Positions 1 to 64,000 of a DNA stretch of 64,000 nucleotides are shown one piece after another. Where the stretch lies: the NCBI GenBank assembly GCA_041658185.1, contig JBBAAR010000001.1, forward strand, positions 44,405-108,404, written 5' to 3'. This DNA is from Elusimicrobiota bacterium (GTDB lineage: Bacteria; Elusimicrobiota; UBA8919). The notes under the pieces were generated by a model that saw only the letters and a program-made list of their open reading frames with translations, searched no databases and had not been told where the DNA came from. How positions within the stretch are numbered: position 1 is the first letter of the stretch; each line of letters starts with the position of its first letter. A program made the position numbers and the translations under genes.

Positions 1-122
1 TAATAGACACCCGTTGTTGCCAAAACTATTATCCCGATTGCAATCCATTGTTTCCAAGGACGACCTTGAATTCTATTCTCTGAAAGTTTTTTTTCTGTTT
101 GGTGCGTATTTTTTTTTGTCAT
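1..122 (-). CDS. partial CDS (first 40 codons only, runs off left edge); basic N-terminus plus one TM helix, function unknown
   Basis: ATG at 122..120 (minus) opens MTKKNTHQTEKKLSENRIQGRPWKQWIAIGIIVLATTGVY with no stop before position 1. It is absent from the ORF track only because the window edge cuts it. It overlaps the tail of the MscS-like ORF. Confidence 0.3.
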   Translation of the reverse strand, partial: MTKKNTHQTEKKLSENRIQGRPWKQWIAIGIIVLATTGVY

Positions 123-783
123 AATTTGAAAGTTCCTTTATTTCCGTGTTACGCCAGCCGATGTCAAAAACATAACCTTCCTGCCCGCCTTCCAGTTTAA
201 TGTAATCGCCCACCCTGAGCTGTTTTGAAAGCGTAATATGAAATCCGGCAAAAAGATTTGAAAGTGTGTCCTGCAAAGCGAGTGCGACTGCAAGTCCGCC
301 GACGCCCAACGCAGTGATGATGGGCGCGATTGAAATGCCGAGTTTTTCAAGCAGGATGAGAAAACCGACGACAATTACCGTCCACCTTGCAACGTTCTGG
401 GTTAAAGACGACATCCGGGGTGCGCCTTCTTTGCCCGTGACATAAACATTTATCACTCCGCCGATAATTTTGGCGGCAGCCAGCGTAAATGAAATTATCC
501 ACAGCGAAACCAGAATTTTATCGGCAAGTATAATGGTTTTGTCCGGGACTGACGTCGTTTTAATCGCGGCTGAAATTCCAATTATTACGCACCACAGCAT
601 AAACGGATTTTTTAGCGATTCTATTACGATGTCGCCTACATTTGTCTCCGTTTTTTTTGTGATTTTTTTCAAATACAAAAATAAAATTTTTCTGACGATA
701 ACTCCGGCAATTATCACTATAAACAAAACTGCAAGCGGGTTGAGATAAACCAACCAGTTCATTTTACGACCTCCGATATGCAA
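73..783 (-). CDS. MscS-family mechanosensitive channel, apparently 3'-truncated
   Basis: Pore-helix/beta-domain signature GVGGLAVALALQDTLSNLFAGFHITLSKQLRVGDYIKLEGGQEGYVFDIGWRNTEI. The ORF then ends after 18 more codons and lacks most of the cytoplasmic domain of canonical MscS. Confidence 0.7.
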   Translation of the reverse strand: MHIGGRKMNWLVYLNPLAVLFIVIIAGVIVRKILFLYLKKITKKTETNVGDIVIESLKNPFMLWCVIIGISAAIKTTSVPDKTIILADKILVSLWIISFTLAAAKIIGGVINVYVTGKEGAPRMSSLTQNVARWTVIVVGFLILLEKLGISIAPIITALGVGGLAVALALQDTLSNLFAGFHITLSKQLRVGDYIKLEGGQEGYVFDIGWRNTEIKELSNYDKKKYAPNRKKTFRE

Positions 784-58462: not shown

Positions 58463-59152
58463 TCATTTCGCAGCCGCGCTTTTCTTCTTTGGTCTGCCTT
58501 TATGCGACCACAAAGATTTTAAACCCGATACTTTCATTGCTTCCACAAATTGTTCGCTCCCATAAGCACCAGATCTAAAAAATCTTTTCAATTGACGTTT
58601 TTCTTTATGTCCGGATGCGACAAAATCACGATATAATCGTCGTCTTTGTTCCGCAGTATCGCCCAACCCAAGATACTCTGGACTCAAATCCGTTATACCA
58701 TCATTTTTTCCTAATGCATACACCGTATAACTAGACCATTTGTAATCTTCCGGTTTACTGACCATTCCCGCTCTTACCGCATTTAGTTCAATATACCGCC
58801 CGCATTCAAGTAGATATCTACCGCTTTCAATAATAAAATTTTTAAATCTTTCCTCCCAAAGATGCCCGGTCCCACCATACTTTTTTCTGTAATATTGCGC
58901 ATAGAGAAGTTTTATACTTTTCAGTGCATCGCTCAATTTTTTGCCGGTTTCCGACTCAATTATTGCGTGAAAGTGATTGCTCATCAATTTATAATGATAA
59001 ATTTTAAGTCCATATCTTCGTTTGTAATACTTCACTAAACTTAAAAACTGCTTAAAATCTTTTTCATCGTGAAAAACTACTTGGCGATTATTCCCTCTGC
59101 TTAAAATATGGTAAATCCCGTTTTCTATCGTGAATCTTGCTCTACGCGGCAT
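58463..59152 (-). CDS. REP-associated tyrosine transposase (IS200/IS605-like Y1, RAYT)
   Basis: YHILSRGNNRQVVF, HUH motif LMSNHFHAII, GHLWEERFKNFII, catalytic-Tyr region GRYIELNAVRAGMVSKPEDYKWSSY. Confidence 0.8.
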   Translation of the reverse strand: MPRRARFTIENGIYHILSRGNNRQVVFHDEKDFKQFLSLVKYYKRRYGLKIYHYKLMSNHFHAIIESETGKKLSDALKSIKLLYAQYYRKKYGGTGHLWEERFKNFIIESGRYLLECGRYIELNAVRAGMVSKPEDYKWSSYTVYALGKNDGITDLSPEYLGLGDTAEQRRRLYRDFVASGHKEKRQLKRFFRSGAYGSEQFVEAMKVSGLKSLWSHKGRPKKKSAAAK

Positions 59153-59185: not shown

Positions 59186-59683
59186 TCATAAAAATTGTAC
59201 CTGTCCCCTTTTTCTCAAATCAATATTTTTGCCGCCGAGAAATTCAAAATTGTCAGTTAACGAACCATGAGGAATATTCACTGCATGAGGAGGAACTGCC
59301 TGGTCTTGTGTCAGATGACAAATGTTACCCATGTAATAATAGACACCAATCTTTTCTCCGGAAAATTTATATTGCTCTTCATATAAATTTTTTAAGATTT
59401 TAATTTCCCATAAATCTTTTAAATCTTTAACATTAGCACCCATAGGAGTAGTATGCGCACTTTCTGCATCAAAACCATTACTACCATTTACAATGTCATT
59501 TGAAAATTTAACTATATCCGGATATTCACCAAGCTCTGATAAGAGACTGATAGATTGTTGAGCAAGAGGACCATGTGTATCAGGTAAAACAGCATTCCAA
59601 CCAAATGCTGAAATTTTCAATCTAAATAATATCCAAGGGACTAAAACAAATAGAAATAAAAAATTTCTTTTTTTAATAATCAT
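59186..59683 (-). CDS. secreted zinc-dependent phospholipase C / S1-P1 nuclease-fold protein, probably 3'-truncated by the REP
   Basis: Signal peptide, then GWNAVLPDTHGPLAQQSI (W...H start of the fold), FDAESAH, ICHLTQDQAVPPHAVN. The last 8 codons (KRGQVQFL*) are encoded by the REP copy at 59191..59215. Confidence 0.45.
   Translation of the reverse strand: MIIKKRNFLFLFVLVPWILFRLKISAFGWNAVLPDTHGPLAQQSISLLSELGEYPDIVKFSNDIVNGSNGFDAESAHTTPMGANVKDLKDLWEIKILKNLYEEQYKFSGEKIGVYYYMGNICHLTQDQAVPPHAVNIPHGSLTDNFEFLGGKNIDLRKRGQVQFL
59191..59215 (+). repeat. REP-type motif AAAATTGTACCTGTCCCCTTTTTCT (copy d)
   Basis: Core at 59198..59208. Confidence 0.8.
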
Positions 59684-61071
59684 TTCTTTTGGGGAATATA
59701 ATCTTTTCTTCTCAAAGAAAGACCTTCTAATGCGAGATCTATCTCTTGTTGAACTCCTTTATCTTTTTCAGTTTTGCGAAGGTCTTGTAAAATACGTATT
59801 ATTTTTTCTCTCGCAAATTCTCTACCAATATCTCCTAAAGAACTTATTGCAGAATTTCTATTTTCAGTATTGTCATCAGTTTTAATAACTTCTAATAAAA
59901 TATTAATTGATTCTTCGTCTTTAATGCATCCCAATTGTATTATTGCACTATCCTGTTCACGCGGAAGTTGCATAAGTCTTTTTAAAAAAGGAATGGCTTT
60001 CTTGGAACCACTATATCCGATAGCGGATATAATGGTCCATTTTAGAGAACCTCGGTCCCTACCTATTTCACCAAGTTTTTTATCTCTTTCATAAAATTCA
60101 TAAAGTTTTATTAAGTTATTCAAACTATCTTCATCATTAGTTTTTCCAATTATATAGCCAATTGATATAACAGCATCTTCTCGAATTTGTATATGCTGAT
60201 TGTCATCCTTAGCTATTTCAAATAATTGTGGAATTGCTTCCTTGTCTCTAATTCTTTTTATCACCGAACCAATGTTTTGCTTGGTTTCTTCATTTGATGT
60301 TTTAGCAATTTCTATTAACTTTGGTAAGATTTCTTTACCATAATAACCAAGTGTTTCAATTAGAGTCAGTGGCATAGTACCTTCATAATAATCTCTTGGT
60401 TGTTTATGTGAATCTATTTCTTTAAACTGTTTTAGTAAGATTGGTAAAGCTTTTTTTGATCTAATAACCCCACACATTTTTATTCCTATAAATTGTGCAC
60501 TAAATTTAGTGTCACGAAGCATTTTTACAAAAATTGGTTCTAACTGTTTATCTTCTGGAGTTATCTTTTCTAACACTTTGTATGCAGTTTTTGTCATATC
60601 TACATCATTCATTGTTAGCATATTTGTTACAAGTTTAACTTCTTTTTCTGTTTCTGGCTTTTTTTCTGCTAAAATTTTTAATAATTTATCTTTTTCTTCT
60701 TTTACTTTTCGTATTTTTTGAAATTCTTGCCTATTATCTTTTTCAAATTCCAATGCTTTATTACTATATGTTTCTTTGGAAAGACCACTAACACCTTGCA
60801 TTTGCTCTTTCCATTTTTTTCCTATGTTTTCTTCCAATTTATCCACATCTTTATTCATTTCTTTCCATCTATTCAGTTCTGTTACTATTTCGTCCATCGT
60901 GTATTTATTTACTTCCGTTTCTGGAATCGTTTGCACCGACATGGTAGATGATAAAATCGTTTCTTTACTTTTAACGTTTTTCGTTTCATCTTTAACGACC
61001 CTTGTTGAACTCTCCCCCCACCCCAACCCGACACCCACCACCATCACAACCATTAAAATTATTTTTCTCAT
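59680..61071 (-). CDS. secreted coiled-coil + HEAT-repeat protein, function unknown
   Basis: Signal peptide MRKIILMVVMVVGVGLGWG. Lys/Glu-rich coiled region. HEAT-like repeats (QIREDAVISIGYI, NRNSAISSLGDIG). Confidence 0.55.
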   Translation of the reverse strand: MRKIILMVVMVVGVGLGWGESSTRVVKDETKNVKSKETILSSTMSVQTIPETEVNKYTMDEIVTELNRWKEMNKDVDKLEENIGKKWKEQMQGVSGLSKETYSNKALEFEKDNRQEFQKIRKVKEEKDKLLKILAEKKPETEKEVKLVTNMLTMNDVDMTKTAYKVLEKITPEDKQLEPIFVKMLRDTKFSAQFIGIKMCGVIRSKKALPILLKQFKEIDSHKQPRDYYEGTMPLTLIETLGYYGKEILPKLIEIAKTSNEETKQNIGSVIKRIRDKEAIPQLFEIAKDDNQHIQIREDAVISIGYIIGKTNDEDSLNNLIKLYEFYERDKKLGEIGRDRGSLKWTIISAIGYSGSKKAIPFLKRLMQLPREQDSAIIQLGCIKDEESINILLEVIKTDDNTENRNSAISSLGDIGREFAREKIIRILQDLRKTEKDKGVQQEIDLALEGLSLRRKDYIPQKK

Positions 61072-61107
61072 AAATTCTTAACCTCCAACATGTTTTTTAA
61101 TTTTTAG

Positions 61108-61545
61108 TTATACTAAATTTGTCTTTGAATTCCTATAACAGTTATTTATCAACCCGTCATCTATCTTGTCATTATTATTAGCGTCTATGTCAGGAGAGAA
61201 GTTTTTATCACCGTCTTGAACCTTTACCCATAGTGTATATTCGCCTTTGCGAAGGGCTTCCCCTTTTACTGCACCTGTCCAGTTAATATTAAATTCTCTC
61301 TCCCGATTGAGATTCAGCGGATACCTTTTCGTGTTCAATTTTATCATACCAAATTTTATTATTTTGTCAAAAAAAATCATAGCAATTGTGGAAAAGAAAT
61401 CTTTTTTCACTAATACTAACGGTGTTACTATTGTTTGTTCTGCAACCTCCATCGGCTGAATAAAAGATTTTTCACACCAGTGGCAAATTTGTTCTTCATC
61501 AGGGCAATAGTTCTTACAATGCGAACATTGCTTACTCATATACAT
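61108..61545 (-). CDS. hypothetical protein with N-terminal zinc ribbon
   Basis: CSHCKNYCPDEEQICHWC followed by a hydrophobic stretch and a beta-rich C-terminus. SD GGAG 8 nt upstream. Confidence 0.5.
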   Translation of the reverse strand: MYMSKQCSHCKNYCPDEEQICHWCEKSFIQPMEVAEQTIVTPLVLVKKDFFSTIAMIFFDKIIKFGMIKLNTKRYPLNLNREREFNINWTGAVKGEALRKGEYTLWVKVQDGDKNFSPDIDANNNDKIDDGLINNCYRNSKTNLV

Positions 61546-61560
61546 ACACTCCGTAAAAAC

Positions 61561-61720
61561 AAAAAAGCCAAGTTACCTAAAACAACTGTGCCCAATTATT
61601 GAACACAGCATTATCTTCGGTAACCCGGCTAACTTTTATCCTTCGGCAACTCGGCGAACTCTCAAAAAGTCCCGTGGTTTTGCGTCCCCGACTCGCGTCG
61701 GCTCTGGCTTTTGCCAGAGG
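61561..61720 (-). promoter_or_regulatory. probable GEMM-I (c-di-GMP-I class) cyclic-dinucleotide riboswitch with intrinsic terminator
   Basis: Minus strand: UCUGGC-AAAAGCCAGAG-CCGAC-GCGA-GUCGG-GGACGCAAAACCACGGGAC...GUUAGCCGGGUUACCGAAG. It has a GNRA-capped hairpin, the ACGCAAA(G/A)CC-CGGG core and the AGCCGGGUUACCGA 3' strand. AGCCGGGUUACC (61630..61619) can alternatively pair with GGUAACUUGGCU (61577..61566), which is followed by U6. Confidence 0.6.
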
Positions 61721-61926
61721 GTCTTCTCCCGCCTAACGGCAGGTCAGACCGTGTGCCTTTATCGTGTTAACTTTATCTAATTTTCAAAGAAACAAAAAGC
61801 CCCTGACTTTTTCGCCAAGGGTTTATAAGGGTATTATGTTCTGAATTTATTTACTTGAACGTAAGAGTAGGTATTATTACACTTCACTACTGCTCCCTTA
61901 CTTTTACTTCTTTTACATCCGCTATA

Positions 61927-61955
61927 AGTATAAAGTATTTTAGGCGTTTTGTCAA
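61927..61955 (-). promoter_or_regulatory. sigma70-type promoter TTGACA-N17-TATACT upstream of the riboswitch leader
   Basis: Minus strand: TTGACA at 61955..61950 and TATACT at 61932..61927. Confidence 0.6.
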
Positions 61956-61974
61956 GCACTTTTTGCACTTTTGG

Positions 61975-62000
61975 AAAATTGTACCTGTCCCTTTTTTATT
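61975..62000 (+). repeat. REP-type motif GAAAATTGTACCTGTCCCTTTTTTAT (copy e)
   Basis: Core at 61981..61991, immediately 3' of the uvrA stop. Confidence 0.8.
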
Positions 62001-62001
62001 T

Positions 62002-64000
62002 TTACAACATTTCTTTTAGGTATTTCGTAGTATAAGATTTTTCGGATTTAAGTATATTTTTGAGAACGCCTTGATACACAACCTCGCCGCCCTTGTCGCC
62101 GCCGTCAGGACCCAAATCAACGAGCCAGTCGGCAGTTTTTATCACATCTAAATTGTGCTCAATAACAATAACTGTATTGCCCGCATCAACGAGACGGTGC
62201 AGAACCTCCAAAAGTTTATGAATATCAGCAAAATGAAGCCCCGTCGTCGGCTCATCCAAAATATAAACGGTCTTTCCTGTCGCCCTTTTTGTAAGTTCCG
62301 ACGAAAGTTTTACCCTCTGCGCCTCGCCGCCGGAAAGCGTTGTCGCCGACTGACCCAATTTCATGTATCCCAATCCGACATCGTAAAGTGTGAGCAGTGT
62401 CTTTTTTATCTGCGGAATATTTTCAAAAAATTTCTGCCCCTCCTCAACGGACATATTTAACACTTCCGAGATATTTTTGTTTTTATATTTTACGGAAAGC
62501 GTTTCCTCGTTGAATCTGGCGCCCTTGCAGACCTCGCATTTTACATAAACATCCGGTAAAAACTGCATCTCTATTTTAATAGTTCCGTCGCCGCCGCACG
62601 CCTCACACCGGCCGCCTTTCACATTAAAAGAAAATCTGCCCGGCGTATAGCCCCTCATTTTTGATTGCGGAAGTTTGCTGAATAAATCCCTTATATGCGT
62701 ATAGACGCCGGTGTATGTCGCGGGGTTGCTCCGGGGCGTTCTTCCTATCGGCGATTGGTCCACTATAATAACTTTGTCAATGTTTTGCCAACCCAAAATA
62801 TCTCTGTGCATTCCCGGAATTTCTTTTGAGTTGTAAATTTTATGCGTCAGTGATTTGTATAAAATTTCGTAGATGAGAGTTGATTTTCCGCTCCCCGAAA
62901 CGCCGGTTATCGCCGTAAAATTTCCCAGCGGAATTTGGACATTTATGTTTTTTAGATTGAACTGCGCGGCGCCTTTTATCTCTAAAAATTTTTTAATTTT
63001 TCTTTTTGATTTTTCCGGAATGGGAATTTCTAATTTGCCGTTTAAGTATTTTGCCGTCAGAGATTTTTCATTTTTGAGGAAATCCTCAATTTTGCCTGCG
63101 AAAACAATCTCGCCGCCGTTTTCTCCGGCACCTGGACCCAAATCAATAATATAGTCGGCGGACCGAATCGTTTCTTCGTCGTGTTCAACCACAATTAGTG
63201 TATTACCGAGATTTTTTAAATTTGAAAGCGTGTCCAAAAGCCGCCTGTTATCCCTCTGGTGAAGCCCGATGGTCGGCTCGTCCAAAACATACAAAACACC
63301 GACGAGACCGGAGCCTATTTGAGTCGCTAACTGTATCCTCTGCGACTCGCCGCCGGCAAGTGTGGATGACTCCCTTCCCAATGTGATGTAGTCAAGCCCT
63401 ACGTTTTCCAAAAATGAAAGCCGGGCAGTTATTTCTTTTGTTATTTCTTTTGATATAAATTTTTCGGTTTCGGTTAATTGAACATTTTTAAAAAATTCAA
63501 GCGCATCTTTTATTGACATTCCGGTAATTTCTGAAATATTTTTCCCGCTGAAGGTAACTGCGAGCGATTCGTCTTTGAGACGATGACCGCGGCATTTTTC
63601 GCATACTTTTGAACGCATAAATTTTGTGAAAATTTCTTCGCGGACATATTCCGACTCCGTTTCTTTATACCTTCTTTCAAGATTCCCGATAACACCCTCA
63701 AATTCACTGTCGCCGTATAGCAAAAATTTCTGATTTTCGTGGGAGAGTTTCTTAAAAGGAGTATCAAGCGAAAAATTATGACGGCGGGCAAGAGCGCTTA
63801 AAAGAGAAAAATAATAATTTGACCAGGCACCCGACCAGCGATGCCTTTTTGTTGTGATTGGTTTTGACCACGGAAGAATTGCACCGTCATAGACGGACAA
63901 ATTTTTATCCGGCACAACAAGTCCTTCGTCAACCTCTATTTTTGTACCGAGCCCGTCACATGTAGGACACGCACCGTAAGGAGCGTTAAATGAAAAAAAT
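62002..64000 (-). CDS. uvrA: excinuclease ABC subunit A (C-terminal ~665 aa; N-terminus beyond the right edge)
   Basis: Two ABC modules ([44 protein letters not shown]) and zinc-finger cysteines ([14 protein letters not shown]...CEVCKG). The frame stays open upstream of M63915 to position 64000. Confidence 0.9.

Follow-up and report, generated by a model that had tools for sequence, protein, structure and literature searches.

Which ligand is read by the leader of a three-gene operon from an uncultured Elusimicrobiota bacterium, and does that ligand open or close expression? The operon lies on a 64,000-nucleotide (nt) stretch of contig JBBAAR010000001.1 (assembly GCA_041658185.1), hereafter the window, whose coordinates are used throughout; features are on the minus strand unless marked otherwise. 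An original prediction, made from the sequence alone, had proposed that the leader contains a GEMM-I cyclic-dinucleotide riboswitch that competes with a terminator and turns the operon on. The analysis described here identifies a class I cyclic di-GMP (c-di-GMP) riboswitch that is probably of the ON type, but with an aptamer anatomy different from the one originally drawn and with a 3′ strand that is present twice.

A class I aptamer with a duplicated 3′ strand

When the whole window is searched with cmscan against Rfam 15, the only family that reaches its gathering score is RF01051 (c-di-GMP-I), which matches 61718..61616 over the full model (positions 1–87) at 50.2 bits (gathering score 35, E = 7.6e-7). 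This is the check that had been proposed for the GEMM-I claim, and it bears the claim out; the locus is a real member of the known class I c-di-GMP (GEMM-I) riboswitches, with the RNA that matches the class model running from 61767 to 61615. The c-di-GMP-II family (RF01786) gives no match within 61400..62100 even at E ≤ 10, and RF03167 (c-di-GMP-I-GGC) reaches 46.9 bits, under its gathering score of 59, with an A at position 47 in place of its defining G. The quoted strings of the original prediction (i.e. CCGAC-GCGA-GUCGG, GGACGCAAAACC, GGAG and the ATG at 61545) are all found at their places on the minus strand. The riboswitch, which most likely switches its operon on by blocking a terminator, is ordinary except for two elaborations, a four-way junction and a duplicated 3′ strand.

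The duplication concerns the second helix of the aptamer. Its 5′ strand, here called A (AACCACGGGAC), directly follows the junction segment GGACGCAAA, the two together occupying 61669..61687 and being 95% identical in a close relative from a JGI metagenome (L025). Two candidate partners for A follow as a direct repeat of 85% identity. The proximal copy, B (GUUCGCCGAGUUGCCGAAG, 61641..61659; 17 of 19 positions identical in L025), which had been overlooked, pairs with one A-C mismatch and has CG in place of the AG bulge, whereas the distal copy, B′ (GUUAGCCGGGUUACCGAAG, 61615..61633; 18 of 19 identical), is the 3′ strand of the RF01051 match. The helix has a bulged purine, C44 corresponds to 61684, and both copies keep the G of the AG/CG bulge. 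In both the window and L025, RF01051 chooses B′; RF03167 aligns the same 5′ half end to end with B (61659..61641), and B is also used by a covariance model of our own (R1, described below).

B′ has a second role as the 5′ arm of an intrinsic terminator, T2 (61555..61630), and only B′, not B, serves in this way. The terminator consists of a 12-bp base, a 6-bp middle part and an 11-bp inner hairpin (61609..61585). In the base, AGCCGGGUUACC of B′ (61630..61619) pairs with GGUAACUUGGCU, the T arm (61577..61566), and the hairpin 61630..61566 folds at −35.2 kcal/mol. It is followed by the U-tract UUUUUGUUUUU (U5GU5, 61565..61555), 15 nt before the ribosome-binding site. The prediction of a 12-bp terminator overlapping the distal 3′ strand is therefore upheld, with both arms and the U-run (61577..61555 for the T arm and U-run together) present as quoted. 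In L025 the base and the U-tract are conserved, the T arm being identical at 11 of 12 positions and the inner part at only 60%. An A-rich segment, GAUAAAAG, just 5′ of T2 (61566..61640) can pair with the U-tract and lengthens the minimum-free-energy hairpin, as in bidirectional terminators.

A metagenome collection was searched for a GEMM-I junction followed by two 3′-strand motifs, which returned 18 loci, i.e. 16 distinct genuine GEMM-I RNAs, one duplicate (L022, of L021) and one spurious hit (L027); with the window included, n = 17. The order A-B-B′-T is thereby shown to recur in 16 other metagenomic loci, and sequence co-variation backs both pairings of A. Across the 17 loci the share of paired cells is 94.7% for A:B and 96.7% for A:B′, values that none of 500 shuffles reached and that compare with 15–48% for slid controls, and at a pair outside the search pattern compensatory changes between A-U, U-A and G-C are found. 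In 12 of the 17 an intrinsic terminator takes its 5′ arm from B′. The two copies are not equivalent, since a mismatch or a non-consensus bulge affects B in 15 of 17 loci and B′ in 5 of 17, and pairing with B′ rather than B makes the second-helix core 4–11 kcal/mol more stable in every one of the 17. At one locus, L028, the terminator overlaps the tail of B′ but not its second-helix part, which implies that only a B′-based sensor fold can regulate there.

Simple ON platforms that have no B also exist, namely L005 and the second aptamer of L026. The latter locus (L026:263-506, −) holds tandem GEMM-I riboswitches, each with its own terminator, the first with the duplicated strand and the second a simple ON platform. 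A separate observation is that RF03167 passes its gathering score at 14 distinct loci (L011–L021, L026 and L028) that carry A47 rather than G; its cross-matching of compact canonical aptamers is a pitfall for annotation. Two possible marks of B as a decoy proved of little use. The A that is missing from the AG bulge of B is also missing from the single-strand second aptamer of L026, which weakens it as proof, and the GGCA:UGCC helix that would close the pocket on B is uninformative as a discriminator, G91 being the Rfam consensus too.

Direction of the switch

The order A-B-B′-T allows two schemes, either A:B together with B′:T, in which the terminator is formed, or A:B′, in which it is not. 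We propose that without ligand the RNA would settle in A:B plus B′:T, so that the terminator forms and transcription stops. Binding of c-di-GMP at the A:B′ junction would lock the second helix, C92 and the short closing helix (C61764–G61618 and G61763–C61619), so that T could not invade and RNA polymerase would read into the three-gene operon. The proximal copy would then serve as a trap for strand A, an anti-antiterminator that keeps the default state tightly OFF despite a very stable second helix. Folding energies are compatible with such a course: with the full 5′ strand, only ∼1 kcal/mol separates the two ligand-free states of the window until T is transcribed, which suggests a poised switch, and with T present the terminator state is favoured by >20 kcal/mol. 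A pseudoknot by which B would hold T in the ON state was considered and set aside: the topology allows it, but B and T match no better than the likeness of B to B′ predicts, and they match poorly in L028.

In this light the locus is probably a transcriptional ON riboswitch of the c-di-GMP-I class that acts by terminator competition. The ON direction is favoured because RF01051 prefers B′ here and in L025 and because B′ is the cleaner copy, and further because the genes 3′ of the duplicated-strand loci encode mostly signal-peptide proteins, subtilases and adhesin-like proteins, with one pilin-like protein. Products of these kinds are typical of functions induced by c-di-GMP. That the duplicated 3′ strand constitutes a distinct, recurrent ON platform of GEMM-I RNAs, in which the partners swap between A:B plus B′:T and A:B′ and B traps A to hold the default tightly OFF, is a more tentative proposal that we put forward with some doubt. 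No description of either the four-way-junction or the duplicated-strand GEMM-I architecture was found in literature searches, which is not proof of novelty.

Several observations weigh against an ON switch so constructed. The compact B-based aptamer is preferred by cmscan in 13 of the 17 loci, at 60–74 bits, and B retains G83 and C92; with so good an A:B score B is not obviously disabled, and ligand bound to A:B would favour termination. The bulge A that B lacks is not among the highly conserved positions in a conservation survey (PMC3764141). The 17 loci are moreover a biased sample, as similarity between parts of B and B′ was built into the search pattern, and neither tertiary contacts nor kinetics enter the thermodynamic models. 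Between the aptamer and the only promoter that can be recognised lies a conserved terminator-like hairpin (T1, see below). Finally, no diguanylate cyclase or phosphodiesterase gene is seen in the window, in which no GGDEF, EAL or HD-GYP motif was found and the sole match to HDxGK sits in a molybdopterin oxidoreductase; 64 kb are uninformative for the whole genome.

The opposite logic, an OFF switch, draws on some of the same facts. Here c-di-GMP would bind the compact A:B fold and free B′ for T, and the unliganded A:B′ pairing would be the antiterminator. The good scores of the A:B fold (46.9 bits with RF03167 in the window, and those of the 13 loci above) are in its favour, as are the earlier transcription of B, the conservation of B between the window and L025, which is as high as that of B′, and the fact that in all 17 loci B′ gives the more stable second-helix core, as an antiterminator would require. 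The geometry of the terminator argues otherwise. The tail of B′ and the inner hairpin offer T a free toehold, and A can be recaptured by B, so that the unliganded A:B′ pairing would be easily displaced and an OFF design would terminate with or without ligand. The terminator of L028 makes no contact with the second-helix part of B′, the preference of RF01051 in the window and L025 is for B′, and defects fall on B in 15 of 17 loci as against 5 of 17 for B′. In Cd1, an OFF-type GEMM-I riboswitch, the switching strand joins the aptamer 3′ strand in an antiterminator fold (PMC9262584), and we take that strand to be a complement of the aptamer strand, not a copy. An OFF switch is on these grounds unlikely, and the ON reading is retained in what follows.

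The four-way junction and the ligand pocket

The class of the RNA is clear from the RF01051 match, but the position of its 5′ junction strand is not the one given by that alignment. A canonical 5′ junction strand, CGAUAAAGGCACAC, occurs only once in the window, at 61764..61751, and had been missed; the pattern CGATAARGGCAMAC likewise occurs there and nowhere else in the window, and nine other GEMM-I loci have it at their 5′ start. The true 5′ strand, CACGAUAAAGGCACAC (61751..61766), supplies C61764 and G61763 of the P1 5′ strand, followed by J1/2 with G20 (61757), G21 (61756), C22 (61755) and C26 (61751). Between it and the junction segment stand three hairpins. H1 (61720..61750, −18.0 kcal/mol) is 94% identical in L025, H2 (CUCUGGC-AAAA-GCCAGAG, 61702..61719, −11.3 kcal/mol) has a loop-closing C-G pair in the window that is A-U in L025, and H3 (CCGAC-GCGA-GUCGG, 61688..61701), the canonical first hairpin with its GNRA (GYRA) loop, is 100% identical. 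The GCGA tetraloop has no 11-nt receptor, and we presume that it resembles the GYRA type with a helical receptor.

The same arrangement, i.e. 5′ strand, hairpin, hairpin, GNRA hairpin and GGGACGC, is found in two unrelated metagenomic GEMM-I RNAs (L023 and L024), in which cmscan itself spans the two-hairpin insertion. The covariance model R1, built from these two RNAs alone with a four-way-junction structure, scores 54.2 bits on the window (61767..61639) and 52 bits on L025. In its alignment CACGAUAAAGGCACAC takes the place of the junction strand, with a high posterior probability, and H1, H2 and H3 are placed as well, the first two arms corresponding to H1 and H2 of the model. In agreement with this, the stretch CACGAUAA(A/G)GGCACAC just 5′ of H1 is conserved in L025 and fits the GEMM-I 5′ consensus cacgaaAAAGGCAAAc. 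With the junction nucleotides G45 and C46 at 61683 and 61682 and A47 at 61681, the four-way register restores the pairs G21-C46 (G61756-C61682), C22-G45 (C61755-G61683) and C26-G41, and it repairs both non-standard pairs (C-C and G-G) of the RF01051 alignment. Three features of the original drawing fall away as a consequence. What looked like an atypical junction, AAAAGCCAGAG, belongs to an inserted hairpin as its loop and 3′ arm, and the real junction is CACGAUAAAGGCACAC, 35 nt further upstream; GCCGGG is not available to UCUGGC for a closing helix, since it makes up the 3′ strand of the second helix; and the two hairpins that had been taken as extra layers of control are H1 and H2, structural arms of the aptamer rather than competitors.

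In the four-way register the ligand-contacting positions 20, 47 and 92, whose roles have been described (PMC3764141), are G20 (61757), A47 (61681) and C92, the last at 61620 in B′ or 61646 in B. All of C22, A23, A25, G42, C44, G45 and A47–49, which are highly conserved positions in that survey (PMC3764141), are present. Position 20 is G in both the window and L025, and the A20 that defines recognition of 3′3′-cyclic GMP-AMP (cGAMP) is absent. The G20/C92 column, which the original prediction had left for inspection, can thus be read, in the corrected register and not in that of cmscan, and this resolves the predicted pocket as of the c-di-GMP type and not of the cGAMP type. A shifted register that would give A20, and with it a cGAMP-type pocket, was considered and discarded, as AAA still follows GCC in the C21 variants and the true junction is further upstream. 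Such variants, with C for G21 and a C-C mismatch by the ligand pocket (AAAGCCAAAC ... GACGC), were seen in four aptamers (L003, L005, L006 and L010) from Gemmatimonadetes, Thermodesulfobacteriota, Woeseiaceae and Rossellomorea genomes.

An aptamer with so unusual a junction might sense another ligand, such as 3′3′-cGAMP or some unknown compound. GEMM-I variants with altered pockets do exist (RF03167, RF03168-type RNAs and the cGAMP class of Geobacter; PMC9262584), and a related contig of the same sample has a weak GEMM-I match with A20. The corrected pocket of the window, however, has G20, A47 and C92 along with the full set of conserved positions and has no A20, and a different ligand is therefore improbable. 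The match on the related contig (L030:1950-2030, +, contig k141_381934 of the same ENA sample) is a borderline one to RF01051 (35.5 bits against a gathering score of 35); with its A at position 20 it is a candidate cGAMP-type variant as judged from sequence. It lies directly 3′ of a promoter similar to that of the window and upstream of a paralog of a tetratricopeptide-repeat (TPR) membrane protein.

If the proximal A:B fold binds ligand as well, the response could be kinetically filtered or band-pass. High ligand would capture the early A:B fold and lead to termination, and intermediate ligand would capture the later A:B′ fold and lead to read-through. That B and B′ both keep G83, C92 and the closing-helix tail, and that the ligand-free states in the window are nearly isoenergetic, would suit such behaviour. 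The idea is, however, purely inferential, the defects of B argue that its fold binds poorly, and we know of no natural single-aptamer riboswitch that behaves as a band-pass; it is distinctly improbable.

The anatomy as first drawn, with AAAAGCCAGAG as the junction, G61708 as position 20 and H2 as a competing anti-aptamer hairpin that adds control, has two points to recommend it. The RF01051 alignment of cmscan uses this register, and GEMM-I variants with C21 and the C-C mismatch occur in four other phyla. Under that register, however, two non-standard pairs remain and H2 must be melted at a cost of ∼12–13 kcal/mol, a cost that does not arise in the four-way register, in which H2 need not melt. 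At the supposed position 20 (61708) L025 has U and yet conserves the upstream GGC, and R1, which was trained on other four-way-junction GEMM-I RNAs, picks the upstream strand. The cmscan register is ruled out by L025, the upstream motif and the R1 alignment together, the 49-nt insertion being the reason that the Rfam alignment put the junction on the wrong strand, and we give the earlier anatomy very little credence. That the element is instead a decaying, non-functional relic beside an insertion sequence is scarcely credible, for although neither of its first two downstream genes has a meaningful homologue and the operon is followed by an IS200-like transposase, the structural elements are 84–100% identical between the window and L025 and the linkers only 33–60%, a mosaic that indicates purifying selection on every structural element.

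Leader, operon and relation to known systems

The leader is preceded by uvrA, which ends at 62002. A sigma-70-like promoter, TTGACA-N17-TATACT (61927..61955), is present as originally named, with 11 of 12 consensus positions matched and 26 of 29 nucleotides identical in L025, and it is the likely start of the leader transcript. The 105 nt that follow it are only 33% identical between the window and L025. They are succeeded by T1, which went unnoticed at first, a terminator-like hairpin CCCUUGGC-GAAAAA-GUCAGGGG followed by CUUUUUGUUU (61790..61821, −13.4 kcal/mol, from a terminator scan) that is 84% identical in L025 with compensatory changes in the stem. No convincing or conserved sigma-70 promoter was found between T1 and the aptamer; transcription would probably begin at 61955..61927 and would have to pass T1 first, and read-through of T1 is the simplest reading of this sequence. 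Pairing of the T1 3′ arm with strand A (inverted repeat I2) was also considered, but it is not conserved in L025 and is likely due to chance. A possible 17-codon open reading frame (61834..61887, MKCNNTYSYVQVNKFRT) with a GTG start and an AAGGGAG Shine-Dalgarno sequence, its status uncertain, has a 23-codon counterpart at the same place in L025 (MSVNRTYPRMVFWFFVGVTSHIC). The two peptides have N-x-T-Y at residues 4–7 in common, with synonymous third-base differences, and in L025 the stop codon lies 2 nt before T1, which suggests either translation-coupled attenuation or a separate small gene.

The regulated operon comprises three co-oriented genes (59186..61539, from the list of open reading frames). 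Translation would start within 61537..61552, where the Shine-Dalgarno sequence GGAG (61552..61549) precedes ATG 61539, with an in-frame alternative at 61545. Gene calling on the source contig, which in ENA is the 197.6-kb metagenome contig ERZ27247322 k141_333455, selects ATG 61539, for a product of 143 residues. Gene 1 (61539..61108) encodes a zinc-ribbon orphan of that length with an N-terminal CxxC...CxxC motif, gene 2 (61071..59680) a 463-residue HEAT-repeat protein (Pfam HEAT_2) and gene 3 (59683..59186) a 165-residue protein that resembles phospholipase C by profile comparison with solved structures, the latter two with signal-peptide-like N-termini. The earlier label of an unknown secreted-protein operon is thus a fair one. 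A search of 5.8 billion sequences gave no meaningful homologue of the 143- or the 463-residue protein, and tracing relatives of the locus through its regulated proteins was dropped for this reason; an exact-protein look-up matched the source contig and two near-identical places only. The 165-residue protein has 93 distant relatives in an exhaustive HMMER search, in whose alignment W29, H37, H123, D127 and H133 are invariant. This family has no Pfam model and forms the N-terminal domain of proteins of 129 to 4630 residues. It shares the W/H/D/H/H/D/H/H/E pattern with zinc-dependent phospholipase C, and solved phospholipase C structures are matched by the family profile (8cqm_A at E = 1.9e-5, also 1ah7 and 1olp).

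Downstream of the operon are an IS200-like transposase and then PEPCK, and the genes 3′ of the riboswitch module differ between the window and L025. IS200-like Y1 transposase genes lie directly after the operon (58463..59152, −) and beside the TPR gene of the related contig (L030:4399-5091, +), a placement that hints at rearrangement of the two loci. At the far end of the window (1..783, −) there is a paralog of the TPR membrane protein that is riboswitch-controlled in L025. Its start (∼120..1) abuts the end of an MscS-like open reading frame with no intergenic space and no riboswitch, and this boundary may be a fusion or truncation junction.

Taken at face value, the sequence would mean that c-di-GMP controls exported proteins of unknown function in an uncultured lineage of the Elusimicrobiota, and the resemblance of one product to zinc-dependent phospholipase C gives a handle on c-di-GMP signalling in this phylum, from which no c-di-GMP riboswitch report was found in a literature search. 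For annotation, the lesson is that a misplaced junction in an Rfam alignment can mislead calls of ligand specificity. The duplicated-strand platform of the 17 loci offers a natural example of a switch built around a very stable aptamer helix, and may be of interest for the design and study of co-transcriptional switches.

Among known systems, Vc2 of Vibrio cholerae and the RF01051 consensus share with the window the junction AAAGGCA.AC, the GNRA-capped first hairpin, the segment GGACGCAAA, a second helix with a bulged A and an AG bulge, the tail (A/G)CCGAA, the pocket nucleotides G20, A47 and C92 with the C44/G83 pair, and a location in the 5′ leader on the coding strand. The window differs in the four-way junction of its first-helix domain with two extra hairpins (49 nt), in its GCGA tetraloop without the 11-nt receptor, in the duplicated 3′ strand and in its host, an Elusimicrobiota metagenome-assembled genome. 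RF03167 is approached by the compact A:B fold, which aligns with it end to end, but the score stays below gathering and A47 stands where RF03167 has its defining G. The pilM riboswitch of Geobacter metallireducens (GEMM-Ib) is a transcriptional ON switch that senses cGAMP and whose pocket is described with a protonated adenine (PMC9262584). As in the scheme proposed here, its aptamer and terminator folds are mutually exclusive through the use of the aptamer 3′ strand in the terminator, and ligand blocks the terminator, whereas the window has G20 and, compared by description only, no duplicated 3′ strand is described for pilM. Ligand-gated strand invasion is likewise the principle of the pbuE (ydhL) adenine ON switch of Bacillus subtilis, in which a nucleating inner terminator hairpin extends into the aptamer closing strand unless ligand is bound (PMC7707468). 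That riboswitch belongs to another aptamer class and has one switching strand and a weak closing helix, so that no trap strand is needed. Finally, four-segment attenuators of the trp-leader type (1:2, 2:3 and 3:4) also consist of four strands with two exclusive schemes, one of which contains the terminator. The alternative pairing in the window is 1:3 (A:B′) and not 2:3, because strands 2 and 3 are copies and not complements, and the choice between the schemes would be made by a small-molecule ligand rather than by a ribosome.

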